A DNA stretch of 52,021 nt from Candidatus Omnitrophota bacterium (GTDB taxonomy: Bacteria; Omnitrophota; Gorgyraeia; Duberdicusellales; 4484-171): contig JAQTSA010000001.1 in assembly GCA_028711575.1 (NCBI GenBank), forward strand, positions 1-52,021, in the 5' to 3' direction. The notes beneath the pieces were generated by a model that worked only from the letters and a program-made list of their open reading frames with translations, ran no database searches and was not told where the DNA came from. Shown here piece by piece: positions 2,345 to 52,021 of the stretch (the stretch's first letter is position 1; each line of letters starts with the position of its first letter). Made by a program: the position numbers and the translations under genes.

Positions 2345-3007
2345 ATGAGAAAGGCGGCTGATTTAAAAAAAGAAACCTTAAGTCTGTTTAAGCTTTTGCC
2401 GTGGCAAAAAAGATTATATGTGGTTTTAAGGTTTCTGACTTGTCCGTTTCAGGAAATAGCTGAGTTTGTGCCTGATTCCGGAACGGTTCTTGATTTAGGC
2501 AGTGGAATGGGTATTTTTAGTTTTTATTTGTCAAAAAAATATCCTGGTCTTTCTATTAAATCTTTTGATTATAACCAATCGAGAATAGCTGTCTGTACCG
2601 AGATAGCATTAAAAAACAGTATTTCTAATCTATCATTTTCTGCCGGAAACATTGTTAGTCAGGATTTTGCTGATAGCGCTGACTGTATTTTATTGAACGA
2701 TGTTTTCTACCAGTTGTCTTTAGCTGATAAAAAAAAGATAATAGAAAAGTGCCTGGAAAAGCTGAATTCGAACGGCTATTTAATAATAAAAGAAGTCGCT
2801 AAAAAACCGTTGATTAAGTATTGGTTTTGTTATTTTCAGGAAGTATTTGTCGCGAAAGTCTTAGGATTAAACCAGGGGTTAGTTAACATTTTAAGTGTTA
2901 GTGAAATGCTTGATCTATTAGGCCAGTATAAAGTCTCAGTATCGGTAACGCTGTTGGACCGGGGGTATTTTTATCCTCATATAGTTTATTCTATTAAAAA
3001 AAGATGA
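2345..3007 (+). CDS. Class I SAM-dependent methyltransferase
   Basis: Has the glycine-rich motif I VLDLGSGMGIFS followed by an acidic residue at the strand end (FD). Size is 220 aa. It starts 3 nt after the upstream stop. Confidence 0.75.
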   Translation: MRKAADLKKETLSLFKLLPWQKRLYVVLRFLTCPFQEIAEFVPDSGTVLDLGSGMGIFSFYLSKKYPGLSIKSFDYNQSRIAVCTEIALKNSISNLSFSAGNIVSQDFADSADCILLNDVFYQLSLADKKKIIEKCLEKLNSNGYLIIKEVAKKPLIKYWFCYFQEVFVAKVLGLNQGLVNILSVSEMLDLLGQYKVSVSVTLLDRGYFYPHIVYSIKKR

Positions 3008-4449
3008 GTAAAGTCGTTTTAGTTAATCCTTCATTAAGTGTTGACAGCCGTTATGGCGTAATGTCTGTTGCCGGGGGAGTAGAAATACCCTTTGGTATTT
3101 GTTATTTAGCCGGGTATTTAAAAGAAAAAAAAGTTTCTGTCCAGATAATTGACGCTTGCGCATTAAATCTTGACAGTGATGGCCTCATCGGTCAGATAAA
3201 AAAGACTAATTGCCGTTATTTAGGAATTACTGTTACAACTCAGCAGCTGCCCTCGGCCGCGGCTGTTGCTGAAAAGCTGAAAAAAGAAAATCCTGAACTC
3301 ATAATCATCGTCGGCGGCTGTCACATCAGTTCTTCTTATGAAGAGACTTTGAGACAGAATCCTTTTTTTGATTATGCTGTTGTCGGTGAAGGGGAAGTTA
3401 CCCTTTTTGAACTGATAAAAGCCTTAGACAATGGCCAAGACCTTGCTCAAGTTCCGGGGGTTGTTTTTAGACAGAAGGGTAATATAGTTTTTAGCGGACA
3501 AAGAGAAAGGATTAAAGATATAGATTTGTTGCCTCTTCCGGCTTTTGATTTGCTCAGCGACATCCGAAAATATTATCGGCTGACAATTCAGAACGTTATT
3601 TTTCATCCCGGGGTTTCAATTATTACTTCCCGGGGATGTTTTGGCAAATGTGTTTTTTGTGACCGGTCGGTTTTTGGTAATTGTTTGACCAGTCATAGTC
3701 CGGAGTATATCCTTAGAATGATAACATCGCTGGTTGACAGTTATGGTATAAAAAGTGTCATGTTTCAGGACGATAACTTTTTTTTGCCAAAGGCCAGGCT
3801 GTTTAAGTTCTGCGATTTGCTGGCGGCAAGTGGATTAGATCTTAAATGGTCGGCATCTTCACGGATTGACGCGGTAAGCGAAGAGTTGTTGATTAAAATT
3901 AAACAAAGCGGCTGTTGGCAGATTTCTTATGGGATAGAGAGCGCGAATCAGGAGATACTTAAGTTTTATAACAAAAAAATAGAACCGGAGCAAATCAGAA
4001 AAGTTTTATCAATGACCAAACGTTGCGGGATATTAACTAAAGGGTTTTTTATTTTTGGCGGGCCTAAGGAGAGTGAGGAGAGTTTAGCCGAGAGCATTGA
4101 ATTTATGTTAAACGCTGATTTGGATGATGTAAGTGTTACTTTTTTTACCCCTTATCCCGGTATCGAGATCTATAAGACGATATCGTCTTATGGTTCTTTT
4201 GACGCTGATTATCAAAAGATGAGTTGTTTTGATATTGTGTTTGTTCCTTTTGGTTTAACGAAAGAGAAACTTCTTTATTATCAGGCAAAAGCTTTAAAAC
4301 TTTTTTATTTCCGGATACCGGTAATTTTTTCCTATTTAAAACGGATACGGTCTTTTTCCTTTTTTTTGCGTTTAAGTGCCAGCTCTTTGGCGCTGCTTTT
4401 AAACTTTTTTAAAAAGAATGAGCGATTACGAAAAGCGGTTAATAATTAA
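3004..4449 (+). CDS. B12-binding domain radical SAM protein (paralog 1)
   Basis: N-terminal cobalamin-binding-like Rossmann region (LIIIVGGCHIS) and the radical SAM cluster motif CFGKCVFC (CX3CX2C). ATGA overlap with the upstream gene. Confidence 0.85.
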   Translation: MSKVVLVNPSLSVDSRYGVMSVAGGVEIPFGICYLAGYLKEKKVSVQIIDACALNLDSDGLIGQIKKTNCRYLGITVTTQQLPSAAAVAEKLKKENPELIIIVGGCHISSSYEETLRQNPFFDYAVVGEGEVTLFELIKALDNGQDLAQVPGVVFRQKGNIVFSGQRERIKDIDLLPLPAFDLLSDIRKYYRLTIQNVIFHPGVSIITSRGCFGKCVFCDRSVFGNCLTSHSPEYILRMITSLVDSYGIKSVMFQDDNFFLPKARLFKFCDLLAASGLDLKWSASSRIDAVSEELLIKIKQSGCWQISYGIESANQEILKFYNKKIEPEQIRKVLSMTKRCGILTKGFFIFGGPKESEESLAESIEFMLNADLDDVSVTFFTPYPGIEIYKTISSYGSFDADYQKMSCFDIVFVPFGLTKEKLLYYQAKALKLFYFRIPVIFSYLKRIRSFSFFLRLSASSLALLLNFFKKNERLRKAVNN

Positions 4450-5284
4450 TGCTGATGACTTTGGATTGACCAAAGGATTTAACCAGGCAATCACCGATTG
4501 TTTTTTAAGCGGCGCTATAACTGGGGCGTCGTTGTGCGTTGTTGGTGAAGCCTTTGATGAAGCGCTTAAAATCTATCGTGAAGTCCCGGGGATGGACCTT
4601 GGCCTGCATCTGGTTTTAACTGCCGAACGTCCGGCGGCAGCCCGGGAATCGGTAAAAACACTTCTTTTACCGAATGGTTTTTTTTACTCTGATGTTTACC
4701 AATTCGCTAAAGCTCTTATTCTAAAGAAAATAAAAGCCCGGGAAGTTTTTATAGAATTAGACGCTCAATTTAAAAAGGCTTTAAATAACGGCATAAAAAT
4801 AACGCATGTCGATAGCCATCAGTATGTTCATCTTTTACCGCTGGTTGACGATATTGTAATTGAGTTGTCAGAAAAGTATAAAGTTCCCTATATTCGCTGT
4901 CCAAGTAATGATTTGACTATTCACTCGAAAACGGTCTCAAAAAGTAGACGGGTGCAGGGATTTTTTTTGAAAATATTTTCCCGGCGGTTTTTAGCTAAAA
5001 TGAAGGCGTATCATTTTAAGCCTAGTCCTAATTGTTTTGGCTTTTTATCGGCCGGCAATTTGAGTTATCAGTCAATGGAAACAATTCTTGCTTGTTTACC
5101 GCCGGGGATAAGCGAAATATCCTGTCATCCCGGATATCCTGATTCGAGTTCGGAAAAGAAATATTCTTTTTGGAAATACAATTGGCAATCGGAAGCGGAA
5201 TTATTATGTTCGGACAGATTTTCCGATATGCTTTTAGCTAAGGGGATTGCCCTTGTTTCTTACGGTCAGCTACTAGAGGAGTGA
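4418..5284 (+). CDS. YdjC/ChbG/HpnK-type carbohydrate deacetylase
   Basis: Has LIINADDFGLT near the N-terminus and HVDSHQYVHLLP, both hallmark motifs of the YdjC family. Overlaps the upstream gene by 32 nt. Confidence 0.8.
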   Translation: MSDYEKRLIINADDFGLTKGFNQAITDCFLSGAITGASLCVVGEAFDEALKIYREVPGMDLGLHLVLTAERPAAARESVKTLLLPNGFFYSDVYQFAKALILKKIKAREVFIELDAQFKKALNNGIKITHVDSHQYVHLLPLVDDIVIELSEKYKVPYIRCPSNDLTIHSKTVSKSRRVQGFFLKIFSRRFLAKMKAYHFKPSPNCFGFLSAGNLSYQSMETILACLPPGISEISCHPGYPDSSSEKKYSFWKYNWQSEAELLCSDRFSDMLLAKGIALVSYGQLLEE

Positions 5285-5285
5285 G

Positions 5286-6707
5286 ATGCCTTTTATCCGG
5301 GAAATAAAAAAAGCTCTGCTGATCAATCCGCCTACCGGCATTTACGACCGGTTTGAGAGGTGTCAGGCTCCGGTTGAGACTGAAACTGTTGAGCTGATTC
5401 GTCCACCGATGGATTTGTTGTATTACGGAGCGGTTTTACAGAATAATCGGGCTGAAGTTCTTATTCGGGATTATCCAACTGAAAAGAAAGATTGGGCCGA
5501 TCTGGCCGACGATATTAAGAGTTATTCTCCTGATATGCTTTTAGTCAGTTCGACTATTCCCACCGAGAAGGAAGATTGTCGGGCTTTCCAAATAGCTAAA
5601 AATATTGATAGCGGTATTATCTGTGTGATTAAAGGTTTTTTCCCCGATAAGGGACAAAAAATTTTTAGGGAAAACGAATCTTTAGACTATCTTTTTCGTG
5701 AGGAGTCGGAACTATCTTTTGCCGCTTTTATCGGGAGAACTAACTTAACCGAAATTAAAGGGTTAACTTATCGCAACGGCTCAAAAATCGTAACCAATGA
5801 TGATTCCTGGGTGACTGATTTGGATAGTTTGCCTTATCCGGCAAGAAATCTGATTAATAACGCGGCCTATAAAATGCCCGATAATGGAAACCCGATGGGG
5901 CTTATTCTTGTTGCCAAGGGGTGTCCTTATTCCTGTCGGTTTTGTCTCGTTCCGGCGGTCAGCGGTAAAACTGTTCGTCTTAGAAGTACTGATTCGGTGC
6001 TAGCTGAAATAATCGAGTGCGTTAATCGTTATGGGATAAAAGATTTCTGGTTTCGGGCGGACACCTTTACTGTAAATAAAGCCTGGGTTCTCGACTTTTG
6101 CCGGAAAGTTAAGAACAGTAACCTAAATATTCGTTGGGCGACTAACAGCCGGGTTGATACAATTGATGAGTCTTTGGCGGCGGCATTAAAAGGTGCCGGC
6201 TGTTTTTCTTTAGGCTTTGGAGTTGAGTCCGGCAGTCAAAAGATTCTTGATAAAATGAACAAAGGAATAACTAAAGAACAAATACGTAAAGCTGTGTCAA
6301 TTTGTAAAAAATATAAAATACAAACCTATCTTTTTTTTGTCTTGGGCCTGCCTTGGGAGACGGTAGAGGATATTAATGAAACTATTTCTTTTGCTCGTCA
6401 GCTAAACGGTGATGTCTTTAATTTTTCTTTAGCTACCTATTTCCCTGGTACCGATTTATATGATTTTGCTGTTTCTGCCGGTTTGATCGATGAGAGTAAA
6501 GATTATTCCGGCTGTGATTATGGTCATCCGATGACCGGAACTTTGTATGTTTCTCGTCAGGACTTGATCGCTTTACAAAAGAAAGCTTACCGAAAAATAC
6601 TTTTTCGGCCGGGATATATCGTTCAGTGTCTTAAAAATATCAATAACCCCCAAAAAATTTATTGGTACGCTAAATCAGCATTACGTATATTTAAACAGTT
6701 AACCTGA
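5286..6707 (+). CDS. B12-binding domain radical SAM protein (paralog 2)
   Basis: CX3CX2C motif CPYSCRFC preceded by a B12-binding-like N-terminal domain. Starts 2 nt after the upstream stop. Confidence 0.85.
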   Translation: MPFIREIKKALLINPPTGIYDRFERCQAPVETETVELIRPPMDLLYYGAVLQNNRAEVLIRDYPTEKKDWADLADDIKSYSPDMLLVSSTIPTEKEDCRAFQIAKNIDSGIICVIKGFFPDKGQKIFRENESLDYLFREESELSFAAFIGRTNLTEIKGLTYRNGSKIVTNDDSWVTDLDSLPYPARNLINNAAYKMPDNGNPMGLILVAKGCPYSCRFCLVPAVSGKTVRLRSTDSVLAEIIECVNRYGIKDFWFRADTFTVNKAWVLDFCRKVKNSNLNIRWATNSRVDTIDESLAAALKGAGCFSLGFGVESGSQKILDKMNKGITKEQIRKAVSICKKYKIQTYLFFVLGLPWETVEDINETISFARQLNGDVFNFSLATYFPGTDLYDFAVSAGLIDESKDYSGCDYGHPMTGTLYVSRQDLIALQKKAYRKILFRPGYIVQCLKNINNPQKIYWYAKSALRIFKQLT

Positions 6708-6709
6708 AC

Positions 6710-8089
6710 ATGAAAAAAGTACTGCTAATATTTGCGTCGGCTAAAGTCAAAGGTAATTATATTAATAATCTCCCTCCGGTAGGATTGTTTTACCTGGCAT
6801 CAGCTTTAAAAAAAGGAGGGTTTACAGTTTCGATTTGTGATTGTTCAGTTGATGATTTTAGTTTAAGAGGAATAGCTCAATACGACTGCGTCGGTTTTAG
6901 CGTTAATATTTCTAACTTTGAGAATACTGTTAAACTGATCAAAAAGGTAAAAAACGCCAGTAAAACAGCTTTAGTTGTTGTCGGGGGGCCTTTACCAAGT
7001 GTTTCTCCCGAGATATTTTTTCCTCTAGAGCTTGACGCTGTTTTTATCGGTGAATCGGAAGCTAGTTTTATAGAGTATCTTAACCTGAAAAATCCAAAAC
7101 AAAGCCGGAATCGGGGATACTATTTTAAAGATTCTCAGGGAGAATGGAAATTTAATGGTGATTACCCCTTTATTGAAGATTTGGACGGCCTTAGTTTTCC
7201 TCTGTTTACAAAAGAAATGTTAAAAAAATATTATACGCCGGTTAAAAAGAAGAGCCCGGTATCAATTATGATATCTTCCCGGGGATGTCCTTACCATTGT
7301 ACTTTTTGCTGCAAAATTTTAGGAAGTAAATTTAGAATGCGTTCAGCGGAGAATGTTGTTAATGAAATAAAATGGCAAGTCGATTCTCTTGGCGCTAAAG
7401 AAATAGTTATTTATGACGATAATTTTACATTGAATAAACAAAGAGTGATCGATATTTGTGATTTAATTATTTCTCAGCGGATAGAGGTTAGTTTACAGTT
7501 AACAAACGGAGTAAGGGTCGATACTCTGGATCTAGAGCTATTGAAGAAGATGAAACAAGCCGGAGTCTGGATGATCGGTATTGCCCCGGAAAGCGGCGAC
7601 GAAAAGACTTTAGAAAAAATTGAAAAAAAGTTTGACCTTGATCAGGTCGTCAAGGTACGAAATTGGTGCTTGGGCCAAAACATTAAAGTCTGGTCTTTTT
7701 TTATGGTTGGCTTTCCCTGGGAAGATCGGGCGCTTATTCGCAAGACGATTGATTTTGCCTTACGGCTTGACGCTGACATAAGTCAGTTTTCTCAAGTTAC
7801 TCCTTTACCAAAGACAAAGTTGTATGACGATTTCTATAGCAAGAAACGATCGGAAACTTTTGAAAATGATATTAGTTTATTTCACGTTTCCGGCCGGTTG
7901 ACCGAGTGCGGCTTAAGGCCAAAAGAACTGAAAAAAATGATCGGCCGGGCCTATTGGAAAATCTATTTTAAACCTAAAAAAATGCTGAGACTTTTAAGAA
8001 TTTTTAAAATCACTGACCTTATACGTTTGAGCGGTTACACTATTCGTTCGCTTCTTGGCGGAAGTAACTTTAAAAAAAGAGATAGTTAA
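6710..8089 (+). CDS. B12-binding domain radical SAM protein (paralog 3)
   Basis: CX3CX2C motif CPYHCTFC and an N-terminal B12-binding-like domain (ALVVVGGPLPS). Confidence 0.85.
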   Translation: MKKVLLIFASAKVKGNYINNLPPVGLFYLASALKKGGFTVSICDCSVDDFSLRGIAQYDCVGFSVNISNFENTVKLIKKVKNASKTALVVVGGPLPSVSPEIFFPLELDAVFIGESEASFIEYLNLKNPKQSRNRGYYFKDSQGEWKFNGDYPFIEDLDGLSFPLFTKEMLKKYYTPVKKKSPVSIMISSRGCPYHCTFCCKILGSKFRMRSAENVVNEIKWQVDSLGAKEIVIYDDNFTLNKQRVIDICDLIISQRIEVSLQLTNGVRVDTLDLELLKKMKQAGVWMIGIAPESGDEKTLEKIEKKFDLDQVVKVRNWCLGQNIKVWSFFMVGFPWEDRALIRKTIDFALRLDADISQFSQVTPLPKTKLYDDFYSKKRSETFENDISLFHVSGRLTECGLRPKELKKMIGRAYWKIYFKPKKMLRLLRIFKITDLIRLSGYTIRSLLGGSNFKKRDS

Positions 8090-10061: not shown

Positions 10062-10089
10062 TTGAAAATAGTTTAAATCTTGGTACAAT
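10062..10089 (+). promoter_or_regulatory. Sigma70-type promoter for tRNA-Arg(UCG)
   Basis: TTGAAA (10062-10067), a 16-nt spacer, then TACAAT (10084-10089) preceded by an extended -10 TGG. It lies about 20 nt upstream of the tRNA 5' end. Confidence 0.5.
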
Positions 10090-10108: not shown

Positions 10109-10182
10109 GCGCCCGTGGCCCAATTGGATAGGGCATCTGGCTTCGGACCAGAGGGTTGCAGGTTCGAGTCCTGCCGGGCGCG
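10109..10182 (+). tRNA. tRNA-Arg (anticodon UCG)
   Basis: Hand-folded cloverleaf of 74 nt. Acceptor GCGCCCG/CGGGCGC, D stem GCCC/GGGC, anticodon stem TCTGG/CCAGA with loop CTTCGGA, T arm GCAGG-TTCGAGT-CCTGC, discriminator G. No encoded CCA. Confidence 0.9.
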
Positions 10183-10197
10183 CGTTTTTTGAACCGC
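10154..10197 (+). repeat. Left copy of a 44-nt exact direct repeat (tRNA variable loop to 3' end plus 15-nt trailer)
   Basis: GGTTGCAGGTTCGAGTCCTGCCGGGCGCGCGTTTTTTGAACCGC recurs exactly at 10442-10485. Confidence 0.9.
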
Positions 10198-10231
10198 GAT
10201 TCAGTCATCAGTGTTTTAGCGATTAATTTAA

Positions 10232-10279
10232 ACACCGATGATCACAAAGTCCTCGCTTTCAGCGTGGCAGCAGATGATC
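10232..10279 (+). repeat. Module H copy 1 (hairpin bracketed by GATGATC direct repeats)
   Basis: ACACCGATGATCACAAAGTCCTCGCTTTCAGCGTGGCAGCAGATGATC. Its homolog is at 11750-11794, where the hairpin has a different sequence but the pairing is kept. Confidence 0.8.
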
Positions 10280-10440
10280 ACCAATCCGAATCTTACTTCG
10301 TTGTAAATCTTCGGGGATAACAGCGTAGTGGGTTTTTCTTCTTGAGCGAATCTTCAAACGAAGCGTCATAAGGGGCAGAGCCCCTTTTGAGGACCGAGTG
10401 CGCCATCGTAGATGGGCGAGTGCGTAAGGACTCTCGGTCC
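10280..10440 (+). repeat. Conserved ~160-nt structured element X, copy A (candidate ncRNA or miniature mobile element)
   Basis: Runs from ACCAATCCGAATCTTACTTCG to GGACCGAG...CTCGGTCC. About 94% identical to copies B and C by hand alignment, contains several hairpins and has no ORF. Confidence 0.85.
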
Positions 10441-10441
10441 T

Positions 10442-10485
10442 GGTTGCAGGTTCGAGTCCTGCCGGGCGCGCGTTTTTTGAACCGC
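10442..10485 (+). repeat. Right copy of the 44-nt direct repeat (orphan tRNA-Arg(UCG) 3' half)
   Basis: Exact duplicate of 10154-10197, directly abutting the 3' end of X copy A. No matching 5' half is present, so this is not a functional tRNA. Confidence 0.9.
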
Positions 10486-10594
10486 TGTTAAGATATTGGC
10501 GATTCAGCGATTAAGGCTTTAAAGTTTCGAAAAAAATGTTGTTAAAATCCCGCTTGCTTTGCTAATCAAATCTAACCACTTTCCAAAAAGAATC

Positions 10595-10623
10595 TTTACA
10601 GACCGGTTTAGATAATTTAAAAT
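10595..10623 (+). promoter_or_regulatory. Possible sigma70 promoter for the 10664 gene
   Basis: TTTACA (10595-10600), a 17-nt spacer, then TAAAAT (10618-10623). Confidence 0.4.
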
Positions 10624-10663
10624 AGGTACAACATTGTTTATTCCAAAAAGTTTAAGGAGGAAA

Positions 10664-11587
10664 ATGAAAAAACTTATTTTTTTCTTGCTTGTGCTTTTAA
10701 CCTTGTCTCATCCGCTTTATTCTAAGTCGATTGTTACTTTTAAAAATGGCCGAATTGTTGAGGGAGAAATAGCTGAGCAGACCGATGAGTTTGTTAAGGT
10801 AATGTTTGAAGGCATTACAATAACTTGTTGGCTGGATGAAGTAGAAAGTATAGTTTCTGAAGATGGTACTCTTTTTAAGCCGCAAGTGATGTCGGCCCAA
10901 GTATCAGTGCAAGATGAGTTTATCCAAAGCCAGGAAACTCCGGAATCAGTATATTATAACCAAAATCAAGTTTCATATGAGGATAAGAATGAGTCAGAGT
11001 CAGATTCTTTAAATCGGTCCCAACAGACCTCTAGAGTTGAAATAGACCCAGAGTTATCAGAAGATGATCCGGCTTTAGATTCTACTTCCCGCAGCTTAAA
11101 GAAAACTGAGCTTCTTTTGTCGCCTGAAGAAACTAAAATCAAAAAGCTTGAAGAAAGAATTAAACTACTTTTTAATATCCTAAATTATATTGTTTGGGGC
11201 TATTGTCTTATGCGGATAGCAATTAATTTAAGGGTAGTAAACCCTTGGTGGTCATGGATACCCTTTTTAAATTTTGTGTTGACGTGTGATGTAGCTGAGA
11301 GGCCTCGAAAATGGGCTTACTCTGTATTCGCAGCAGTATTTGGTATGTTAGTTTTTCTTTTTATAAGTCAAATTTTTATTTTTATGGGTTTTTACTCTTT
11401 TATCTTGATAACTCTAATGGTCTTACCTCTTTTTATAGTCGCTATCTTTTCTCTTGTGATTTTTATACGCTTGTGGATATCTATTGTTGATCGGTTAGGA
11501 ATTTCACGGTGGTTGGTTATACTTTTGTTTGTTCCTTTATTTAATTATTTCTTTTTGTTCTATCTTGCTCGAATTAAGGTAGACTAG
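10664..11587 (+). CDS. Hypothetical secreted/membrane protein (signal peptide, acidic Ser/Glu-rich middle, C-terminal multi-TM region)
   Basis: ATG 10664 is preceded by AAGGAGG (the track's TTG 10634 start is less likely). The N-terminus MKKLIFFLLVLLTLSHPLYS looks like a signal peptide. The C-terminal third has about 4 hydrophobic helices and a WWSWIPFLNF motif. Confidence 0.7.
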   Translation: MKKLIFFLLVLLTLSHPLYSKSIVTFKNGRIVEGEIAEQTDEFVKVMFEGITITCWLDEVESIVSEDGTLFKPQVMSAQVSVQDEFIQSQETPESVYYNQNQVSYEDKNESESDSLNRSQQTSRVEIDPELSEDDPALDSTSRSLKKTELLLSPEETKIKKLEERIKLLFNILNYIVWGYCLMRIAINLRVVNPWWSWIPFLNFVLTCDVAERPRKWAYSVFAAVFGMLVFLFISQIFIFMGFYSFILITLMVLPLFIVAIFSLVIFIRLWISIVDRLGISRWLVILLFVPLFNYFFLFYLARIKVD

Positions 11588-11605
11588 TTGAGCCTTATAT
11601 TTTTC

Positions 11606-11634
11606 TTGTCGAGCGATGATAAAAATGATACAAT
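11606..11634 (+). promoter_or_regulatory. Sigma70-type promoter for tRNA-Arg(ACG)
   Basis: TTGTCG (11606-11611), a 17-nt spacer, then TACAAT (11629-11634) with an extended -10 TGA. This is the same TGnTACAAT design as at the first tRNA. Confidence 0.5.
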
Positions 11635-11649
11635 TCATGCCTTATTTAT

Positions 11650-11723
11650 GCGCCCGTGGCTCAATTGGATAGAGCATCTGCCTACGGAGCAGAAGGTTAC
11701 AGGTTCAAATCCTGTCGGGCGCG
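11650..11723 (+). tRNA. tRNA-Arg (anticodon ACG)
   Basis: Cloverleaf of 74 nt. Acceptor GCGCCCG/CGGGCGC, D stem GCTC/GAGC, anticodon stem TCTGC/GCAGA with loop CTACGGA, T arm ACAGG-TTCAAAT-CCTGT, discriminator G. Confidence 0.9.
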
Positions 11724-11729
11724 TACTTC
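11695..11729 (+). repeat. Left copy of a 35-nt exact direct repeat (tRNA-Arg(ACG) 3' half plus 6-nt trailer)
   Basis: GGTTACAGGTTCAAATCCTGTCGGGCGCGTACTTC recurs exactly at 12097-12131. Weaker similarity continues downstream (AGTAATTAAGTTA). Confidence 0.9.
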
Positions 11730-11749
11730 CTTCGTAGTAATTAAGTTAG

Positions 11750-11794
11750 ACACAGATGATCACAGAGTCCCGCTAACGCGGGAAGCAGATGATC
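11750..11794 (+). repeat. Module H copy 2
   Basis: ACACAGATGATCACAGAGTCCCGCTAACGCGGGAAGCAGATGATC. The hairpin is TCCCGC-TAAC-GCGGGA. Confidence 0.8.
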
Positions 11795-11852
11795 TCAGAT
11801 ATGTGTTATTTAGGAAATAGCCCTTTTGGGAAGAGTCAAACGATTGTCAAAC
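11791..11852 (+). repeat. Module S copy 1 (62 nt)
   Basis: GATCTCAGATATGTGTTATTTAGGAAATAGCCCTTTTGGGAAGAGTCAAACGATTGTCAAAC. About 95% identical to 12358-12419. Confidence 0.85.
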
Positions 11853-11900
11853 AGTAGTCAAACGCACCTTCGGTCCTTTGTACCTTCGGTGCTGTCAAAC
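11835..11900 (+). repeat. GTCAAAC heptamer cluster 1 (4 copies)
   Basis: Exact GTCAAAC at 11835, 11846, 11857 and 11894. The first three have 11-nt periodicity. Confidence 0.9.
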
Positions 11901-11935
11901 GTTGTTTTACGAAGTGACTAAAAGATTGAGCGATT

Positions 11936-12095
11936 ACCAATCCGAATCTTACTTCATTGCAAATCTTCGGGGATAACAGCGTAGTGGGTTTTTCTTCTTG
12001 AGTGAATCTTCAAACGAAGCGTCATAAGGGGCAGAGCCCCTTTTGAGGGCCGAGTGCGCCATCGAAGATGGGCTAGTGCGAAGCACTCTCGGCCC
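11936..12095 (+). repeat. Structured element X, copy B
   Basis: Same element as 10280-10440. Its outer stem is GGGCCGAG...CTCGGCCC, a compensatory change relative to copy A. Confidence 0.85.
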
Positions 12096-12096
12096 T

Positions 12097-12131
12097 GGTT
12101 ACAGGTTCAAATCCTGTCGGGCGCGTACTTC
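12097..12131 (+). repeat. Right copy of the 35-nt direct repeat (orphan tRNA-Arg(ACG) 3' half)
   Basis: Exact duplicate of 11695-11729, lying 1 nt after X copy B. Confidence 0.9.
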
Positions 12132-12196
12132 ATTAATAGTGATTAAGTAATTAAGTTATTAAGTGATTGAGTGAAAAGCCAAACGATTGAGCGATC

Positions 12197-12356
12197 ACCA
12201 ATCTGAATCTTACTTCGTTGTAAATCTTCGGGGATAACAGCGTAGTGGGTTTTTCTTCTTGAGTGAATCTTCAAACGAAGCGTCATAAGGGGCAGAGCCC
12301 CTTTTGAGGGCCGAGTGCGCCATCAAAGATGGGCCAGTGCGAAGCACTCTCGGCCC
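12197..12356 (+). repeat. Structured element X, copy C (not followed by a tRNA 3' half)
   Basis: About 96% identical to copy B (6 differences by hand alignment). It is followed directly by module S copy 2. Confidence 0.85.
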
Positions 12357-12357
12357 T

Positions 12358-12419
12358 GATCTCAGATATATGTTATTTAGGAAATAGCCTTTTAGGGAAG
12401 AGTCAAACGATTGTCAAAC
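12358..12419 (+). repeat. Module S copy 2 (62 nt)
   Basis: GATCTCAGATATATGTTATTTAGGAAATAGCCTTTTAGGGAAGAGTCAAACGATTGTCAAAC. Confidence 0.85.
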
Positions 12420-12466
12420 CGCCCGTCCGCCTGCGGCGAGACGAGGCTGTCAAACAATTGTCAAAC
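12402..12466 (+). repeat. GTCAAAC heptamer cluster 2 (4 copies)
   Basis: Exact GTCAAAC at 12402, 12413, 12449 and 12460. These form two pairs with 11-nt spacing, separated by a GC-rich hairpin. Confidence 0.9.
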
Positions 12467-12516
12467 ATTGTGGGGAAGGGATTTCAGGATACGAATTATT
12501 AAGATTTATTCTAAAG

Positions 12517-12800
12517 CAACTGTTTGACGCTCGCTCAGGCGAGCAGTTTGACAGGCGTATCTCGCCTGTTTGACGTGAACGTAGTGAACGTTTGACGGTC
12601 TTTTAATCGGGTGTAGGGTGAAGATAGATTTAGTAAAACGATAGTCAAACGTTCTAAGAGGAAGGGCTGAATATTTGGAAACAACTGTTTGACGCTCGCT
12701 TAGGCGAGCAGTTTGACACGCCGAGGCGTGTTTGACGGTCCCGCAAGGCGGGACCAGGTTGACGAAAGCGTAGTAAACGTTTGACGTTCGCTCAGCGAGC
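12517..12800 (-). repeat. Inverted-orientation GTTTGAC array with GC-rich palindromic spacers (two related sub-arrays)
   Basis: GTTTGAC at 12522, 12546, 12568, 12590, 12687, 12711, 12730 and 12779, plus the variant GGTTGAC at 12757 and one GTCAAAC at 12644. Most spacers of 12-19 nt are hairpins, e.g. GCTCGC-TCAG-GCGAGC, AGGCG-TATCT-CGCCT and GGTCCCGC-AAG-GCGGGACC. The starts of the sub-arrays at 12517 and 12682 are near-identical for about 36 nt. Confidence 0.9.
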
Positions 12801-12955
12801 TTTCGACTATCCTGCTGCTCTTGTATTTTTGTCCTTCTGCTGCCAATTCTCAGTAAATATATATTCTTTTTTGTTTCTGTAACTTTTTCTATATAAAACC
12901 GGAAATTGCGGTAAAATAAAATAGCAGTTTTTAGTCGATTGAACAAGGAGGGAAT

Positions 12956-45777: not shown

Positions 45778-48700
45778 ATGATAATCTTTTTTTATAAAAA
45801 ACGTGGTGAGATTTCTTTTCGGGTTCTAGTTGTTACTTTAATCCTATCTTTTTGCCTTTCGCTTGCTTCCGGCTATTTCAATAACCAATCTTCTTCAGGT
45901 TTTGCTGAATACGTACCTGAACCGAGTAAGCTTATACCTTTAAGCCAACCTTTTAGCCCTGCTATGCTTAGGGGAGTAACCGTAAACCCCAAAGATCCTT
46001 TTCAATTTGATTTTCTTCTTGATAGTGGACAAGAAACGTTAACCAATGAAAGGTTGATTAGAGAGTCTAAGCGACTTATTAAATATTTTTATGGTGCTTT
46101 AACTGTTCCGTCTGAGGACCTTTGGGTAAACCTTTCTCCTTATGAATCGGAAAGGATAGTTCCCACCGAGCTTGGTTCAACTGAACTAGGTAAAGGTCTT
46201 CTAGAGCAAGATTATATTTTAAAACAGCTTCTTGCTTCAGTTACTCATCCGGAGAGTCCTTTGGGAATGAAGTTTTGGCAGAAAGTTTATCAACGCGCTT
46301 ATTCCTTGTATGGGACGTCAGATATTCCGATTAATACGTTTGATAAGATATGGATTGTTCCTGATAGGGCAGTAATCTATGAAGATGGAAACAAAGCCTA
46401 TATCAAAGAAAGTAATTTGAAGGTTATGCTAGAAGAGGATTATCTGGCTTTGGAAAAAAATCGCAATAATCCTGATAAAGCTTTGAATTCTATCGGCGTC
46501 GATAAGATCAACCAGATAAGTAAAGTATCTTCAGATATCATGAGAGATATCGTTCTACCTGAAATAGAGCGAGACATAAATACAGGTGAAAATTTTGCGG
46601 TGTTACGTCAGATTTACAATTCTTTAATCCTTGCGGTATGGTTCAAACAAAAGTTAAAGACACATATCTTAAATCAGGTTTACTCGGATAGAAACAAGAT
46701 AAAGGGCGTCGACATTAATGACCGAAATGTTAAAGATAAAATCTACGCGTATTATTTGGAAGCATTTAAGAAAGGTGCCTACGATTTAATCAGAAATGAC
46801 TATGACCCGGTTACAGATCGAAAGATTAAACGTCGATACTTTTCCGGTGGATTTGACGGATCAAAAGTTCTAGATGTTATTTCTGGTAGTCCGTTTCCGA
46901 AAGGAGGCATTAGTTCTGAAGGTAAAGTCATTGCCTTAAGCGTTAGGACTTATCCGGCATTAACGGGAATGGGTGTTGGCGGTGGATCGGAATCTGGCGG
47001 TAGCGATAGTTCTTTTGGTGTCGGTGGTGGTGCGGTAAAAAAAATCGACCCAATAGAAGATCAAATAAGACGACAACAACTAAAAAAACGGTTATCTTTT
47101 TCGGCGCTGCTTGAAAATGTTCTGAGCCATGTTGTATATCTTTTAAGGCGATCGCCGGCTTTTTTTTTAGCGGAGCATCTTACAGATAAGAATTCACCCA
47201 AAACGGCTAACGATTATACTGCAGCAGAACTGAATCCATACGATTCATCTACCTACCATCAAACGGTTCATCAGGCGATTTCTTCCGGTTTACCATCAGA
47301 TTTAGATAAGAACTTTGAGAATTATCGAGATCATGATGGTCAAGTCGTTTTGCCTGTAAAAGACCTTTTTAAGAATACAGGTCTTATTGCTCACATTGGT
47401 TTAGGACAGGTTTACGATGAACCTGTCATTTATATAGATTCCCAATTTAATGGGCAAGATCGAGAGGATATAAAAGCTCACGAACGATATGAAATTGAGA
47501 GATGGCAGTGGCTTCGCAGTGGGTTGGGTCTTAATTATCAGCAAATGCGTAATTGGATACGTGATAATTCAAATTATACCGGATCAGGGACGGCACAGCG
47601 TCTTGCGGCAAAATGGCACGTTCAAGCTCCGAGTGTTCGGCATATTTATCTGCGTATTCAGGGAGATAAAGTTCAATCAGCTTCAATGCAGGCGACGGTT
47701 GCTAGTGTCGAAGATGTTTATGATGATTCTCCTGACGTAGTCTTGGCGGCGGGTTTTTCTTCAGCAATTGATATGGATCCTGAAACATTAGAAATCCTAG
47801 ACCTTACTATTGAGGAAGTCTTAAAAGAAAAGCAAGCTCAGTCTGGTAGAGAAGTCTTTAATTCTGGACCTTTAGTTTCGATAATTTTCGAACAGGACAT
47901 CCAAAGGCATAGCTCGGAATTTAGCGATCGATTATCTCAATATATACCATACCTAAATGATCGCTATAGCAATCAATATTATTTTACGAACTTAGCCAAT
48001 TATCTGGACTATATCTCTGAACGGTTATTCAAAGATAGTTACGACAGTGAATTGATACCCACCAGTTATCATTTAACATGGGGAGATTTCAAGAGGCATA
48101 TTCGTCGTGAAATAATCTTTTTTGGCGATAATTCCCGTAAAGCAGTTGAACGAATCCTGTTTTTATTAGGTGTCGATCCTTATGGGGTAAACAGCAATGA
48201 GATAGAAAGCAGAAAAGCATACCTGCAAAGAGTAATTGAACGCTGGCATATATTTGGACCGATAAAATCCTTGGCTTTAGGCGAATTTGTTTTTGTTGAA
48301 TCAGGTAAAGACAAAGGGGTTTATCTTAAAGTGAAAGTTCCGCTTAAGGGCCAACGGTTAGCAAGAACTGATGAAACGGCGGATCAAGAGCGAGAACTTG
48401 TTTTTAAGATTTCGGTACTGAATAACGCTATTGTTAAACCAGGTAATAAGGCTGATTTTGAGAATAGTCAACACTGGCACAATATCTTAAATAGTGTCCG
48501 TTATGCTATGTTTAATCCCTTACCCAATGATGTGGTTATGCGCGCTCCGCATGGAAGGATGTATCATCATACCTTTTCTGTTAACAGTAGCCTTCAAGAT
48601 CATCGGGTCGTTTTTCGTCCGATACTTTATGACAATGAGGACACTGATTCGGGCGTTGCCGGGGAAATAGTAATTACCGGTATTGCTACTCACTTCAATA

Positions 48701-51700
48701 ATCATGAAGGGTTGTATAAGGAGCCGTTATTAGCGGCAGTGTCAAGCGCTGAGAGTATTGAAAATGGCACTCTTGTTGGTGCTGATGGTAAAGTTATTGC
48801 GAGATTGCGAGGGCTAATGGAAGATTCACCTTTGTCGTCACTAGAAACCCTGCAGGCTGTAGCTGAAGCAATTGACAGGGGCAATATTTCTCTTATACGA
48901 GACAAGTCTGTTCAGGCTAATTTGGGAATAATTCAAAATGATGATCAGCAAAAAGAAAATGAACTGATAGAGTTAGATGTTTTTTCTTCGCTGGTGCAGC
49001 GGGCTATGAGTCAGGGTGAGTGGATTGGTAACTATGATTCTCGGATATTTTCTCGTTTGGAAACGTTGGGGGGGCGTGGAACGAGGACTTCGTTTGAGGT
49101 GTACTCTATGGATAAAGGCGGTTTCCCGCAGGGTGTAACCACGGCCTGGGGTTTTATTAGAGGAAGTTTTGTTTTTGTTGTGTCATCAGATGTTGCTGGC
49201 AATAAAGAGGATCTTGATCAAGCCTTGAAAAACGCGGTTAATCAGATACGGAATATGGTGCAGATGGTCTCTTCTGGCAATATAGGTGCTGTCGAAAGTG
49301 CGTTACGAGAAAGTCTAGATTCTCTGTACGGGAAAGAAGTTCCGTTTAATGAAGAAATTAAAAGTTTGTTAATCAGATCCAGGATTATTTCTTCTGATGT
49401 TGCAGAATTGCTTGAAGTACATATAGTAGCAGATGAAGAACTGAACGCTCTTGGATTGAATGATGCGGCATATTCGGTTGATAGTAAAATAATTGTCCGT
49501 CGTTCAGTGTATGAGGATGGCGTTGCGATAAACAACGGCAGATTAACTGATTATTCCAAAGTTCTTATTCATGAGTCAGTAGCCAGACATTTAGCTTTTT
49601 ATCAGAATGCGGCTTCTGGAGAGGGGAGTGTTCATCACTGGGCTGCTCGCAGTATAGAACAGCAGATGGAACTATCAGTTTTGTTAGAGTATAGAGATTC
49701 ACTGAGTAGTAAAGAGGAGAAAGAAGAAGTCTCAAAAGAGATACGACAGTTGTACGTAAGACATAACCAACAGCTAGAAAAGATGGAGCTTGATATTATT
49801 GGTCTTGACACAGAAAATAAGCGTCAGCATAGTGAAGATTATGCCATGTCCGGTAGTCTTGGTACCTTTAACCGTGGTGAATTATCGCTTCGCAAAAAAA
49901 ACGTTCAGGAATTACTTCAAGGGTATACTCGGTCAGCTTCTCGCACGGAAGCGGAAAAACACATAAGAGAACTTATATTTAGATTAGGCGGAATAGATAA
50001 CTTAAAAGCTACTGAAGCTTTGAGAACAATCGTAACTCGACCTCGGGTGAACAGACAGGATAATGAAATCCTTTTAGCGGTTGAGGCTCTTTCTTTTGCT
50101 GCGGGTAAAGGTAACAGCGTCGCTCAGTCACAGTTACGAACTATTGTTCAGATGCACTTAGCCAATCTTATTATTAGCGGGATTGTTTCTGGATTTTTTT
50201 CGACGGATTCCGGTCATTTTGCCGATGGCTTCCTTTCATCAACTGTTATGCCTAAATTACTTTCGATGCTTGCGGATCAAGGATCCATGGGGGCAGACGT
50301 TTTTACTCCGGTAACACAATTAATCAGTTTGGTTCTACAGTCTCCGGAGCGTTTTAATCAGGATAACTCTTTTGATAAGGAAAAAATAGAGTCTTTGTTT
50401 GTCCGTCGTCTTATTTCTGCTGACGCTATTCTTTCCACACCGGATTTATCAATTGAGGAGTACCGTGCTTCGGCTAATACTGTAAATGCGATAGGGGACT
50501 ATTTTCCTTACCTAATCATTCAGGATTATAACGCCGCCAGAGTAGGCTACGCCTTGGGTCCTTACGCCAGTCAGAATGGACTTGCTTCCTGGAGATTTTT
50601 TGATAATGCTCATTTTCAGGAGGTTACATCAGGGCTAACGGCTATTGAACGGCATTCCATAGCTTCTGCAGCTTATCATTTTTTGCGTCAGCACGGTAAA
50701 AGTACTGTTGTTGACGGAAACCTTTCGGTTGCCGTTGACGTTATTATGATGCAACGCACGAGTAATTCGTTACTTTCAATACGTCCGTTTTCCTCAACCA
50801 GAAAAACAATCAATATCCTTCACAATGAAGATAGTTTTGACGTGTCTATGGTTGAAGAAATTGAACGTCAGGCTAGTTCTCAAACCGGAGAACCCCTAAT
50901 AGAGAGTTTTAAGGGGGCTGAACAAAAATATAACGCTCTCAACTCTGTATCCCAGAGTACCGGGGAACTAACCGTGTTCTTTGTCGGGCATGGCGGTCCA
51001 AATCACTCATGGCTTTCCGGAGGGGAACCAGAAACAGCTGTTTCTGATAGGATGAAACATCCCTACGCGATAAGTTTTGAGGAAATGGGAAACTCTCTGA
51101 TAGAGCGTGGTGATATAGGTAAAGTTGTTATTTTACTTGAATCGTGTTATTCGTACAACTTCGCGGTTAATTTATACAATTATTTGAAACAACATGGTGC
51201 AAAAGAGTTCCCTGCGATTGTTACGGCATCATCGTACAACCAGTTGAGTTGGACCATATTGTTTGTTAAATCGATATCGGAGTTTGTTCGCAGAAACAAC
51301 GATTTTAAGCTCGGTGACGCCTTTGAGATAGAGCAATATATGTATCAAGATCAGGATCTTAGCGTTTTCCTTCCAACGTCTAAATCGATAGAAAACCAGG
51401 TAGCAAACCTCGTTGATGCTGAAGACGGACAAGATGCTTTTATTTTCGACGATCAAACCGTAGAGTTGTACTTTCCTGGGTTGATCCTTGCTGCTACTGA
51501 AACAGGTGTTCGGGAAGAAACTGAGATTAGATATCCCCCCTTAGCTGTTGTTCAGTCAGGGTTCATTGGTAGTGACGGCCGAGTCGAAATATCGGATTTA
51601 GAGAAAATAGGTGTTGCTTCAGATAGAGTGATTGATGCATATAATCGTAAAGAATTTATGTTACCGGTAACAGTTGCAAACGGCCACGTTGTTTTGAGGG

Positions 51701-52021
51701 ATGCAGTTTTACAAATAGGAGACATTACTGTTACAATTAAGGTAAATAATACGGTTGAAGGGTTTGCGGGTGTATCGGCAGATCATAGTGTCGTTTATGT
51801 TAACATTACTGATATTGATGATTTATTATTTTCATCTCAATTGTCTGATGAGGAAAAAGAAACAGCGGTAAAACGAATACTTTTGCATGATGTGACTGAA
51901 AGTTATGCTTTACAAAGCCGATATCGTCGTCCGGAAGCGCATCAGGCAGCGATGATGGCTGAAAGTATGATGCCCGGACAGTCTCAACGGATACGTGATG
52001 CCTTAGGCGATATACTTAAAA
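45778..52021 (+). CDS. Giant membrane-anchored protein of more than 2,081 aa (3' end beyond the window); not in the supplied ORF track
   Basis: I hand-translated the frame phased with 45778, 20 codons per sequence line. No TAA/TAG/TGA occurs between the in-frame TAA at 45709-45711 and base 52021. The first ATG is 45778 (alternative TTG at 45757). The N-terminus is MIIFFYKKRGEISFRVLVVTLILSFCLSLASGYF (basic stretch plus one TM helix). Only short out-of-frame or antisense ORFs are listed in the track for this region. Confidence 0.85.
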   Translation, partial: MIIFFYKKRGEISFRVLVVTLILSFCLSLASGYFNNQSSSGFAEYVPEPSKLIPLSQPFSPAMLRGVTVNPKDPFQFDFLLDSGQETLTNERLIRESKRLIKYFYGALTVPSEDLWVNLSPYESERIVPTELGSTELGKGLLEQDYILKQLLASVTHPESPLGMKFWQKVYQRAYSLYGTSDIPINTFDKIWIVPDRAVIYEDGNKAYIKESNLKVMLEEDYLALEKNRNNPDKALNSIGVDKINQISKVSSDIMRDIVLPEIERDINTGENFAVLRQIYNSLILAVWFKQKLKTHILNQVYSDRNKIKGVDINDRNVKDKIYAYYLEAFKKGAYDLIRNDYDPVTDRKIKRRYFSGGFDGSKVLDVISGSPFPKGGISSEGKVIALSVRTYPALTGMGVGGGSESGGSDSSFGVGGGAVKKIDPIEDQIRRQQLKKRLSFSALLENVLSHVVYLLRRSPAFFLAEHLTDKNSPKTANDYTAAELNPYDSSTYHQTVHQAISSGLPSDLDKNFENYRDHDGQVVLPVKDLFKNTGLIAHIGLGQVYDEPVIYIDSQFNGQDREDIKAHERYEIERWQWLRSGLGLNYQQMRNWIRDNSNYTGSGTAQRLAAKWHVQAPSVRHIYLRIQGDKVQSASMQATVASVEDVYDDSPDVVLAAGFSSAIDMDPETLEILDLTIEEVLKEKQAQSGREVFNSGPLVSIIFEQDIQRHSSEFSDRLSQYIPYLNDRYSNQYYFTNLANYLDYISERLFKDSYDSELIPTSYHLTWGDFKRHIRREIIFFGDNSRKAVERILFLLGVDPYGVNSNEIESRKAYLQRVIERWHIFGPIKSLALGEFVFVESGKDKGVYLKVKVPLKGQRLARTDETADQERELVFKISVLNNAIVKPGNKADFENSQHWHNILNSVRYAMFNPLPNDVVMRAPHGRMYHHTFSVNSSLQDHRVVFRPILYDNEDTDSGVAGEIVITGIATHFNNHEGLYKEPLLAAVSSAESIENGTLVGADGKVIARLRGLMEDSPLSSLETLQAVAEAIDRGNISLIRDKSVQANLGIIQNDDQQKENELIELDVFSSLVQRAMSQGEWIGNYDSRIFSRLETLGGRGTRTSFEVYSMDKGGFPQGVTTAWGFIRGSFVFVVSSDVAGNKEDLDQALKNAVNQIRNMVQMVSSGNIGAVESALRESLDSLYGKEVPFNEEIKSLLIRSRIISSDVAELLEVHIVADEELNALGLNDAAYSVDSKIIVRRSVYEDGVAINNGRLTDYSKVLIHESVARHLAFYQNAASGEGSVHHWAARSIEQQMELSVLLEYRDSLSSKEEKEEVSKEIRQLYVRHNQQLEKMELDIIGLDTENKRQHSEDYAMSGSLGTFNRGELSLRKKNVQELLQGYTRSASRTEAEKHIRELIFRLGGIDNLKATEALRTIVTRPRVNRQDNEILLAVEALSFAAGKGNSVAQSQLRTIVQMHLANLIISGIVSGFFSTDSGHFADGFLSSTVMPKLLSMLADQGSMGADVFTPVTQLISLVLQSPERFNQDNSFDKEKIESLFVRRLISADAILSTPDLSIEEYRASANTVNAIGDYFPYLIIQDYNAARVGYALGPYASQNGLASWRFFDNAHFQEVTSGLTAIERHSIASAAYHFLRQHGKSTVVDGNLSVAVDVIMMQRTSNSLLSIRPFSSTRKTINILHNEDSFDVSMVEEIERQASSQTGEPLIESFKGAEQKYNALNSVSQSTGELTVFFVGHGGPNHSWLSGGEPETAVSDRMKHPYAISFEEMGNSLIERGDIGKVVILLESCYSYNFAVNLYNYLKQHGAKEFPAIVTASSYNQLSWTILFVKSISEFVRRNNDFKLGDAFEIEQYMYQDQDLSVFLPTSKSIENQVANLVDAEDGQDAFIFDDQTVELYFPGLILAATETGVREETEIRYPPLAVVQSGFIGSDGRVEISDLEKIGVASDRVIDAYNRKEFMLPVTVANGHVVLRDAVLQIGDITVTIKVNNTVEGFAGVSADHSVVYVNITDIDDLLFSSQLSDEEKETAVKRILLHDVTESYALQSRYRRPEAHQAAMMAESMMPGQSQRIRDALGDILK
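50950..51180 (+). other. Candidate clan CD (caspase/legumain/CHAT-like) cysteine peptidase catalytic core inside the giant ORF
   Basis: ELTVFFVGHGGP (His codon 50989-50991, residue 1738) and GKVVILLESCYSYNF (Cys codon 51145-51147, residue 1790). Each follows a hydrophobic strand, 52 residues apart. Compare the legumain-type hhhhxDHG ... hhhhEACxSG pattern. Confidence 0.5.

Follow-up and report, generated by a model that had tools for sequence, protein, structure and literature searches.

Does a tRNA gene that is followed by an exact copy of its own 3' half always record the integration of a mobile element? The question is raised by two tRNA-Arg genes in a 52,021 nt stretch of DNA from a Candidatus Omnitrophota bacterium (GTDB lineage Bacteria; Omnitrophota; Gorgyraeia; Duberdicusellales; 4484-171), namely positions 1-52,021, forward strand, of contig JAQTSA010000001.1 in GCA_028711575.1; we refer to this whole stretch as the window. 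Each of the two genes is followed on its own strand by an element, here called X, the end of which abuts a second copy of the 3' half of that tRNA. Direct repeats of tRNA 3' halves are the standard signature by which islands and prophages are delimited, and the original prediction for this region read them in this sense, as an attL/attR footprint or a very long target-site duplication, with a miniature mobile element, the remnants of two deleted islands and a functional X RNA carrying a tRNA-like 3' module as its possible explanations. The reading that we favor, and to which we would give about an even chance of being correct, is that the extra tRNA 3' halves would have arisen as the tRNA trailer was locally duplicated head to tail and its copies were corrected, and would not be scars of integration.

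Exact tRNA 3'-half repeats at two tRNA-Arg genes

Locus 1 consists of a complete tRNA-Arg(TCG) gene (10109..10183, + strand; called by ARAGORN, with an Rfam tRNA score of 69.2 bits and the same isoacceptor and T arm in other genomes of the Planctomycetes-Verrucomicrobia-Chlamydiae (PVC) group) and X copy A (10276..10441, +; 166 nt, delimited by alignment and consensus fold). Locus 2 consists of a complete tRNA-Arg(ACG) gene (11649..11724, +; ARAGORN, Rfam 70.9 bits) and X copies B (11932..12096, +; by alignment) and C (12193..12357, +; by alignment and fold). We denote the tRNA 3'-half block as H (H_a at locus 1, H_b at locus 2), its second copy as H' and the spacer as S. H_a (10154..10197, +) covers tRNA nt 45-73 and 15 nt of trailer, including a T6 run flagged as terminator-like, and recurs as H_a' (10442..10485, +) directly after X copy A. 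H_b (11695..11729, +) covers tRNA nt 45-73 and 6 nt of trailer and recurs as H_b' (12097..12131, +). A script-based check for exact matches bore out both repeats at these positions, with lengths of 44 nt and 35 nt, as well as the specificity of each duplicate for its own tRNA locus, and showed that both are maximal, the flanking bases being different. Chance cannot account for exact repeats as long as these in 52 kb. The intervening DNA is 244 nt and 367 nt long and, as had been proposed, encodes no protein, in that none of its open reading frames (ORFs) has a Pfam match; it likewise holds no fragments of phage or island genes.

The two loci agree in more than the presence of a repeat. Both repeats start at tRNA nt 45, 4 nt 5' of the T stem, and run through the discriminator base into the trailer, and the junction of X with H' joins the same base of X (..CGGYCCT followed by GGTT..) to the same tRNA position (between nt 44 and 45) at both loci, with a microhomology of 1 nt only. 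A gap of 1 nt had been placed between X copy B and its duplicate; there is none, and copies A and B both abut H' directly. Since the TCG isoacceptor with the same a-type T arm is found widely among PVC bacteria, including Verrucomicrobiota, Planctomycetota, Kiritimatiellia and others, the two tRNA-Arg genes are ancient, separate isoacceptors. This supports the earlier inference that the arrangement is not one segment copied between loci; the loci are not simply one recent double copy. As a control, a degenerate H pattern was used in a genome-wide scan; it is unspecific and retrieved at least 120 other tRNA-Arg loci with this 3' half across many phyla, and a second H copy lies nearby in 0 of the matches listed.

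A tandem array at the tRNA-Arg(ACG) gene

The nature of the repeat becomes apparent from a JGI contig (Ga0265294_10107127; hereinafter L004) that covers locus 2 of a close strain and stems from an independent metagenome. Tandem Repeats Finder (TRF) reports there a tandem repeat with a period of 261, 2.0 copies and 94% matches, which extends from the GGTT of the tRNA variable loop to the last base of X, so that the layout reads tRNA5'-[H-S-X]-[H-S-X]-D, where D is the strain-variable DNA to the right. Its two units are homologous over their full length and share a single novel junction, which amounts to the ordinary tandem duplication history that the original prediction had itself named as speaking against it. 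The window has the same architecture: H_b, at the position where the array starts in L004, begins unit 1 and X copy B ends it, H_b' begins unit 2 at the same junction as in L004, and X copy C ends unit 2 and is followed by 'gatc tcagatat...' of D without a tRNA half. The sequence of copy C is identical in the window, in L004 and in ENA assembly ERZ27250894 (L131), the flanks of which are identical to those of L004, and in all three it is followed by D and never by H. Locus 2 thus holds two H and two X copies, and no third copy of the tRNA half was found in D or at the far edge of the variable DNA; this count fits a duplication, whereas two tandem integrated elements would need three copies of H.

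Variation between strains points in the same direction. L131 has only one unit, tRNA-S-X-D, without an H copy, and its spacer passes from the unit-1 type to the unit-2 type within a spacer stretch of ~30 nt that both types share. The two assemblies of one strain therefore differ by exactly one unit, and this difference is a crossover, or a collapse by the assembler, in S and not in H; a collapse in L131 is possible. At the array itself the window and L004 differ only by a replacement of ~170 nt in unit 1 (11749-11921). Upstream of it they are ~92% identical over 11431-11516, the last ~85 nt of the 307-aa orphan gene that lies between the tRNAs, and ~100% identical from 11516 onward, a step that marks a recombination breakpoint. 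In a further strain, assembled from SRR34068990 (L002), X is truncated and all the DNA from there to the flavodoxin gene is different. Because of the 170-nt replacement, the different DNA in L002 and the identity step at 11516, the trailer of tRNA-Arg(ACG) can be described, as far as sequence comparison goes, as a strain-variable recombination hot spot of repeated modules.

At both loci the similarity continues beyond the exact blocks, at lower identity and with indels. The spacer and the DNA after H' (S and S') align with a score that 6 of 1000 shuffles reach at locus 1 and 3 of 1000 at locus 2. At locus 1 the tandem arrangement is represented only by a weak ghost of a second unit (10486..10610, +), which resembles the spacer, its hairpin module and the 5' start of X at ~60% identity with indels; the score of 48.5 is reached by 4 of 500 shuffles, weak evidence that makes a decayed second unit possible.

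A possible history of duplication and concerted evolution

When the two loci are compared module by module, identity is 49% in the promoter region, 85% in the 5' part of the tRNA, 83% in H, 65% in the spacer with its hairpin module (83% in the hairpin core) and 94-96% in X. The X variants are mosaic: in alignment A2 the column pairs 78/139 and 139/169 show all four gametes, and the X of unit 1 in L004 has three states in common with copy A at the other locus. The mosaic variants and the column pairs with all four combinations indicate that X copies exchange sequence within and between loci by gene conversion.

A history that would account for these features can be outlined as follows. X would lie in the 3' trailer transcript downstream of both tRNA-Arg genes, and a unit reaching from tRNA nt 45 to the last base of X would have undergone tandem duplication through unequal recombination or slippage during replication, so that the local tRNA 3' half would be found copied at the start of each extra unit. 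The resulting repeats (H, spacer and X) could then recombine with one another, shifting the number of units one unit per step, while X copies would exchange sequence within and between loci by gene conversion. The short H' copies would be overwritten repeatedly by the adjacent, constrained tRNA gene, and owing to this conversion H' would stay exact while the neighboring spacer decays. We infer that the junction itself may have spread between the loci by recombination inside X, the longest and most similar of the repeats, followed by local conversion of H' by H; transfer through X would be the most economical route by which the same junction of X and H could have reached both loci.

Several points weigh against this history. 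The most serious is the junction: the same base of X is joined to the same tRNA position at two ancient, separate tRNA-Arg genes, and two independent duplications are not expected to share both breakpoints, so that the proposal would need a further, unobserved step, namely spread of the junction through X together with conversion that takes in the trailer outside the tRNA as well. At locus 1 H' is identical over 44/44 positions and the DNA that follows is only ~60% similar, which would call for conversion confined to so short a tract, plausible though this is. At locus 2 the identity between the units changes along their length, from 100% over 35 nt to 50-60% over the next ~10 nt and 97.5% over the following ~205 nt, which goes against a simple recent duplication, since that would be uniform. 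L131 could be an assembler's collapse of the repeat and not a real allele, and the sample amounts to one species with five X copies that represent four distinct sequences. The host lineage is deep-branching and nearly unsampled, and the comparison is for this reason limited to strains of the same species: the nearest homologues of the Dus protein encoded in the window, annotated as Candidatus Omnitrophota, are only 56% identical, no synteny is seen around them, and empty sites in relatives are not recoverable by synteny.

Element X as a candidate structured RNA

Element X, the copies A, B and C of which are mutually 94-96% identical, is found on the strand of the tRNAs, 60-100 nt downstream of each tRNA-Arg gene. 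Copy C alone is predicted to fold with -64.3 kcal/mol (z = -3.99, 0 of 200 shuffles being as stable); the minus strand has z = -3.54, and the plus strand is more stable by 8 kcal/mol owing to a number of G-U pairs. The element folds as a closed unit, with its first and last helices ending at the element boundaries, the last one at the very last base, and it contains an internal GGGGC-AGA-GCCCC-UUUU hairpin. Variable positions fall mostly in loops, and one pair of the terminal helix covaries (A-U/G-U/G-C), with the qualification that covariation is drawn from four distinct sequences only and that two copies have helix-breaking changes. A consensus scan places promoter-like sites with an extended -10 upstream of both tRNA genes (TTGAAA-16-TGnTACAAT at 10062..10089, +, with 10/12 matches, for tRNA-Arg(TCG); TTGTCG-17-TGnTACAAT at 11606..11634, +, for tRNA-Arg(ACG)) and none belonging to X itself. 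The fold would fit a structured RNA encoded on the tRNA strand, probably within the 3' trailer transcript of the tRNA, and X may represent a new, lineage-specific structured RNA linked to tRNA-Arg.

Searches with Rfam 15, which covered group I/II introns, tmRNA, 6S, Y RNA, HEARO/omega RNAs, T-box and ribozymes among its families, yielded no match in X at gathering thresholds or at E-values up to 10; only the tRNAs were found. A 24-mer of X has no match in IMG/VR or in 185k GTDB species genomes, a 20-mer matched a single contig in JGI metagenomes, from the same species, blastn against GenBank phages and PLSDB plasmids returned tRNA matches only, and nhmmer found nothing over 123 fetched loci. 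In the databases searched X is therefore seen only in this Omnitrophota species. Neither X nor the H blocks occur in the phage, plasmid and viral contigs searched, and no viral contig in IMG/VR carries H_a or H_b as a candidate attP.

Several other identities for X or its parts were considered and rejected. As a derivative of a miniature inverted-repeat transposable element (MITE) or DDE transposon it should show features that are missing, since it has no terminal inverted repeats and no short target-site duplication at every copy; GATC stands on both sides of copy C only, the left flank of copies A and B being GATC or GATT and their right flank GGTT. The idea that X is a group I intron was prompted by Candidatus Omnitrophota AUK132 (JAGGWS010000036.1, our L016), where a tRNA-Arg(UCU)-like gene at 7143-7883 is interrupted in the anticodon loop by an insertion of ~680 nt with an ORF of ~150 aa that resembles an ORF-bearing group I intron; this split gene has no Rfam intron match and is not called by ARAGORN. 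X itself has no Rfam intron match either, and the tRNA upstream of it is already complete. Local and global alignments of the X 3' end to both tRNA 5' halves, which would be expected if it were a decayed 5' half, are not significant (at best, 108 of 2000 shuffles do as well). Every X copy also contains a 37-aa antisense ORF (11949-12086(-), 12210-12347(-) and the corresponding part of copy A), which starts from ATG as MAHS[V/A]LKRGSAPYDASFEDSLKKKNPLRCYPRRF.. and extends to 45 aa if an upstream GTG is used; it has no Shine-Dalgarno/ribosome-binding site and several frames are open in this stretch, so that it is probably spurious as a protein.

ARAGORN further calls a 'tRNA-Glu(ctc)' at 10398-10471, which is a chimera of the 3' end of X copy A and the duplicated tRNA-Arg 3' half. 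As a canonical tRNA it scores 17.5 bits with the Rfam tRNA model (E = 4.2), under the gathering score of 29, and there is no equivalent ARAGORN call at X copy B. Partial tRNA copies that are miscalled by annotators are a described trap of the same kind (PMC9897764).

Spacers, flanking arrays and gene content

The spacer of locus 1 (S1, 10198..10275, +) includes a hairpin module (hp), recognized by local alignment, by its 83% identity to a second copy and by motif counts. At locus 1 hp (~10233-10279) is a GC hairpin between the direct repeats CGATGATCAC and AGATGATCAC, and it is homologous to 11735-11793 of locus 2 (83%; score 55.5, which 0 of 1000 shuffles reach). The locus 2 copy can also be bounded as 11749-11796, with direct repeats AGATGATCWC flanking the hairpin. 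Exact copies of this motif number 3 in the window, where 0.07 would be expected, and it could be a candidate protein-binding site. The junctions of modules (hp with X, S with X, X with D, hp with D) all fall at GATC. The strain-specific segment of ~170 nt inside unit 1 (11749..11921, +), delimited by alignment with L004 and by its repeats, comprises hp, hairpins that lie between GTCAAAC heptamers and, at 11790-11852, 63 nt that repeat the beginning of D; in L004 and L131 the place of the segment is taken by ~27 nt of spacer. The spacer of unit 2 (12132..12192, +; delimited by TRF) is homologous to the unit-1 spacer of L004; it contains an 8-nt tandem repeat, AGTGATTA x4.6, at 12138-12174 (574-610 in L004), and motifs of the related form ATTAAG/ATTGAG are found again in every spacer as well as in the alternative sequence of L002.

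The D region (12358..12865, no strand assigned), strain-variable non-coding DNA that forms the native right flank of X, was delimited by motif enrichment. It is packed with GTCAAAC/GTTTGAC heptamers flanking GC hairpins, and L002 has a different sequence in its place. The array spans 11835-12785 and accounts for 17 of the window's 24 copies of the heptamer, for which 5.6 per whole window are expected. The heptamers are oriented on the + strand up to 12466 and mostly on the - strand after 12522, with spacings of 11 and 22-24 nt. Each pair flanks a short GC hairpin. The array, which is absent from L002, resembles repetitive extragenic palindromes (REPs) and bacterial interspersed mosaic elements (BIMEs), or iterons. 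A replication origin and integron attC sites were rejected as explanations of these arrays; the genes keep their orientation across them, and cassettes are absent.

The ORFs of at least 90 aa in the window that were scanned against Pfam are housekeeping in nature, and include Dus, PilZ, flavodoxin-like, CutA, DsbD, IleRS, NusA, IF-2 and RuvB proteins. No integrase, transposase, reverse transcriptase or Cas protein was recovered by Pfam among the window ORFs of at least 90 aa, a large ORF from ~45.8 kb being unscanned; that ORF, of >2000 aa (~45780-52021), runs off the end of the window. A 146-aa ORF at 12506-12946(-) has no Pfam match. Between the two tRNA genes lies a gene for a 307-aa orphan protein (10664-11587), which has no homologue outside the species and, judged by eye, a signal-peptide-like N-terminus and a hydrophobic C-terminus, and three paralogous B12-binding radical-SAM genes are found at 3004-8089.

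Alternative readings

The strongest competitor of tandem duplication is a miniature non-autonomous integrative element, composed of the spacer, with or without hp, and X, together with an attP equivalent to the tRNA-Arg 3' half, and served by a tyrosine recombinase encoded elsewhere; a crossover in the T arm would then yield attL with the complete tRNA and attR with H'. Several features speak for it: exact repeats of 44 and 35 nt over T arm, acceptor strand and trailer have the classic size and position of tRNA att cores, among which the 44-bp repeats flanking PYG1 are an example (PMC9897764), and the junction is identical at two different tRNA-Arg genes, which is what keeps a trans-mobilized element in play. 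Moreover, the T stem, 7-nt loop and T stem have, as read from the sequence, the geometry of a recombinase core site, the ends are conserved (S-hp on the left, X on the right) around a variable interior, the AGATGATCWC repeats of hp could be protein-binding sites, and the DNA downstream of tRNA-Arg(ACG) varies between strains. Beyond the direct repeats of the tRNA 3' half, however, what integration should leave was not found: the Pfam-scanned ORFs of the window include no recombinase, the last X of the two-unit locus 2 runs into D where n+1 att sites would place a distal H, homology is not limited to the core, and the sole difference in unit number seen crosses over in the spacer and not in H, with the reservation that L131 may be an assembly collapse. 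The repeats also include locus-specific non-tRNA trailer with weaker homology beyond, so that attP would have to copy each local flank, and neither the collections of mobile DNA (for X and H) and species genomes (for X) nor the listed tRNA-Arg loci from other genomes offer a second instance. We regard such an element as unlikely, although it is the best placed of the alternatives. A very long target-site duplication conflicts in the same manner with homology that continues beyond the repeat, and we know of no DNA transposon with a target-site duplication of 35-44 nt. Slightly more doubtful still is a related proposal that the units of 250-400 bp are mini-inserts aimed at the boundary of tRNA-Arg positions 44 and 45 by machinery encoded elsewhere. 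They would be either a MITE-like, integrase-dependent micro-element with the T arm and acceptor strand as attP or, in a more radical version, the product of RNA-mediated insertion of tRNA trailer RNA in the manner of short interspersed nuclear elements (SINEs), as suggested by the fixed 3' junction (X end to nt 45), the variable target length (44 versus 35 nt) and the variable 5' parts. In either case X would be a cis-acting RNA or DNA structure recognized by that machinery.

An altogether different role for the second tRNA half, that X and H' form one functional RNA in which a tRNA-like 3' module, kept by selection, serves processing, CCA addition, termination or mimicry, is in our view improbable. 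RNAfold does place the 3' part of X and H in a cloverleaf-like four-way junction for copies A and B, ARAGORN calls a tRNA across this junction at locus 1, H' is perfect there beside decayed flanks, its T6 run could terminate a tRNA-X transcript ahead of the next gene, and on the tRNA strand X has clear structure (z = -3.99, G-U pairs, one covarying pair). Against this stand the best-conserved copy, C, which lacks H in every strain, and the single-unit allele of L131 with X and no H; on account of these two H' is not an obligatory part of X. X closes on its own with a last helix that ends at the last base, the pairing that would close the 'acceptor' differs between single-sequence and consensus folds, the putative tRNA falls well under the Rfam gathering score, the X 3' end has no significant similarity to a tRNA 5' half, and at locus 1 the T6 run right after the tRNA may stop transcription before X. 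Even less probable are the remnants of two larger islands or prophages, inserted in the two tRNA-Arg genes and deleted down to a few hundred bases with the same ends kept. The trailer region does vary between strains, and old integrations most commonly leave partial tRNA copies as their trace (PMC9897764), but deletions that occurred independently would not be expected to spare the same two ends at each locus, the X copies are strongly structured, 94-96% identical and not decaying, no phage or island gene fragments lie between the repeats, and the full-length tandem unit of L004 and the homology beyond the att-like block do not fit. That the duplicates are spurious misjoins of repeats in a short-read metagenome is very improbable, although the region is repeat-rich, Logan unitigs break at H boundaries, and L131 and L004, of one strain, disagree by one unit. 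The X-H_b junction and the two-unit layout recur in the independent contig L004, private variants of copy A lie within 20 nt of the a-type H so that real k-mers span the junction, and two independent unitigs over the right-hand junction of locus 1 (L001 and L129) confirm the continuation of H_a' into S1' from 10486 onwards; because these contigs and unitigs reproduce the junctions, a wholesale artefact is unlikely. The small share of probability that is left goes to other readings.

Comparison with known systems

The loci resemble the attL/attR duplications of prophages, integrative and conjugative elements (ICEs), as well as islands such as PYG1 in that a complete tRNA is accompanied by a displaced exact 3' copy (PMC9897764). 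The likeness extends to the copy of 35-44 nt over T arm and acceptor strand and to the fragment miscalled by the tRNA finder (the 'tRNA-Glu' of ARAGORN). In contrast to those systems, the repeats here are only 244-367 nt apart and enclose neither an integrase nor foreign genes, the repeated block runs into the local trailer and spacer, the units form a full-length tandem array that ends without a final att copy, and the apparent change in unit number crossed over outside the 'att' block. If the extra halves did arise by tandem duplication of trailer units, the att signature can arise without an integrase, which is a caution for both island finders and tRNA annotators.

Gene-poor segments that lie between recombination sites and rely for their movement on a recombinase encoded in trans are known in the form of cis-mobilizable elements (CIMEs) derived from ICEs, integron cassettes and pdif modules. 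The units described here share with such trans-mobilized non-autonomous elements their conserved ends and variable interior; they differ from CIMEs in being far smaller, in an att count and a crossover position that do not fit, and in a recombinase and an excision product that are hypothetical. Should they nevertheless prove to be mobile, they would be the smallest tRNA-targeting mobile units described.

Regarding X, the small RNA 3'ETS-leuZ of E. coli, which derives from the 3' external transcribed spacer (3'ETS) of a tRNA transcript, offers a parallel: X too is an RNA-like structure in a tRNA trailer, on the tRNA strand and without a promoter-like site of its own. It differs from such RNAs in being a prediction only, without an Rfam family and from one species, and at locus 1 a T run separates it from the tRNA; we flag it as a candidate new structured RNA tied to tRNA-Arg. 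The D region, for its part, is like REPs and BIMEs in that short GC hairpins, flanked by a constant heptamer that occurs in either orientation, form arrays in it, and in its intergenic location and its variability between strains. We know of no described REP family that matches the GTCAAAC heptamer with its 11/22-nt phasing, and a RAYT transposase gene is not present in the window.

A further parallel is offered by repeat families under unequal crossing-over and gene conversion, such as rRNA operons and tuf. As in these concerted-evolution families, the units are arranged head to tail, their arrays may differ in length by unit steps, variants are mosaic, and copies are more alike than their flanks. 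What sets the present case apart is a unit that begins within a tRNA gene, whereby extra units mimic an att scar, and a novel junction that is the same at two non-paralogous tRNA genes. The locus is in this sense a small recombination hot spot with apparent concerted evolution in a barely sampled Omnitrophota lineage, and, while looking like an att scar, it fails the tests of an integrative element that concern recombinase, att count, crossover position and confinement of homology to the core, and behaves as a tandem-repeat family that, unusually, begins within a tRNA gene.

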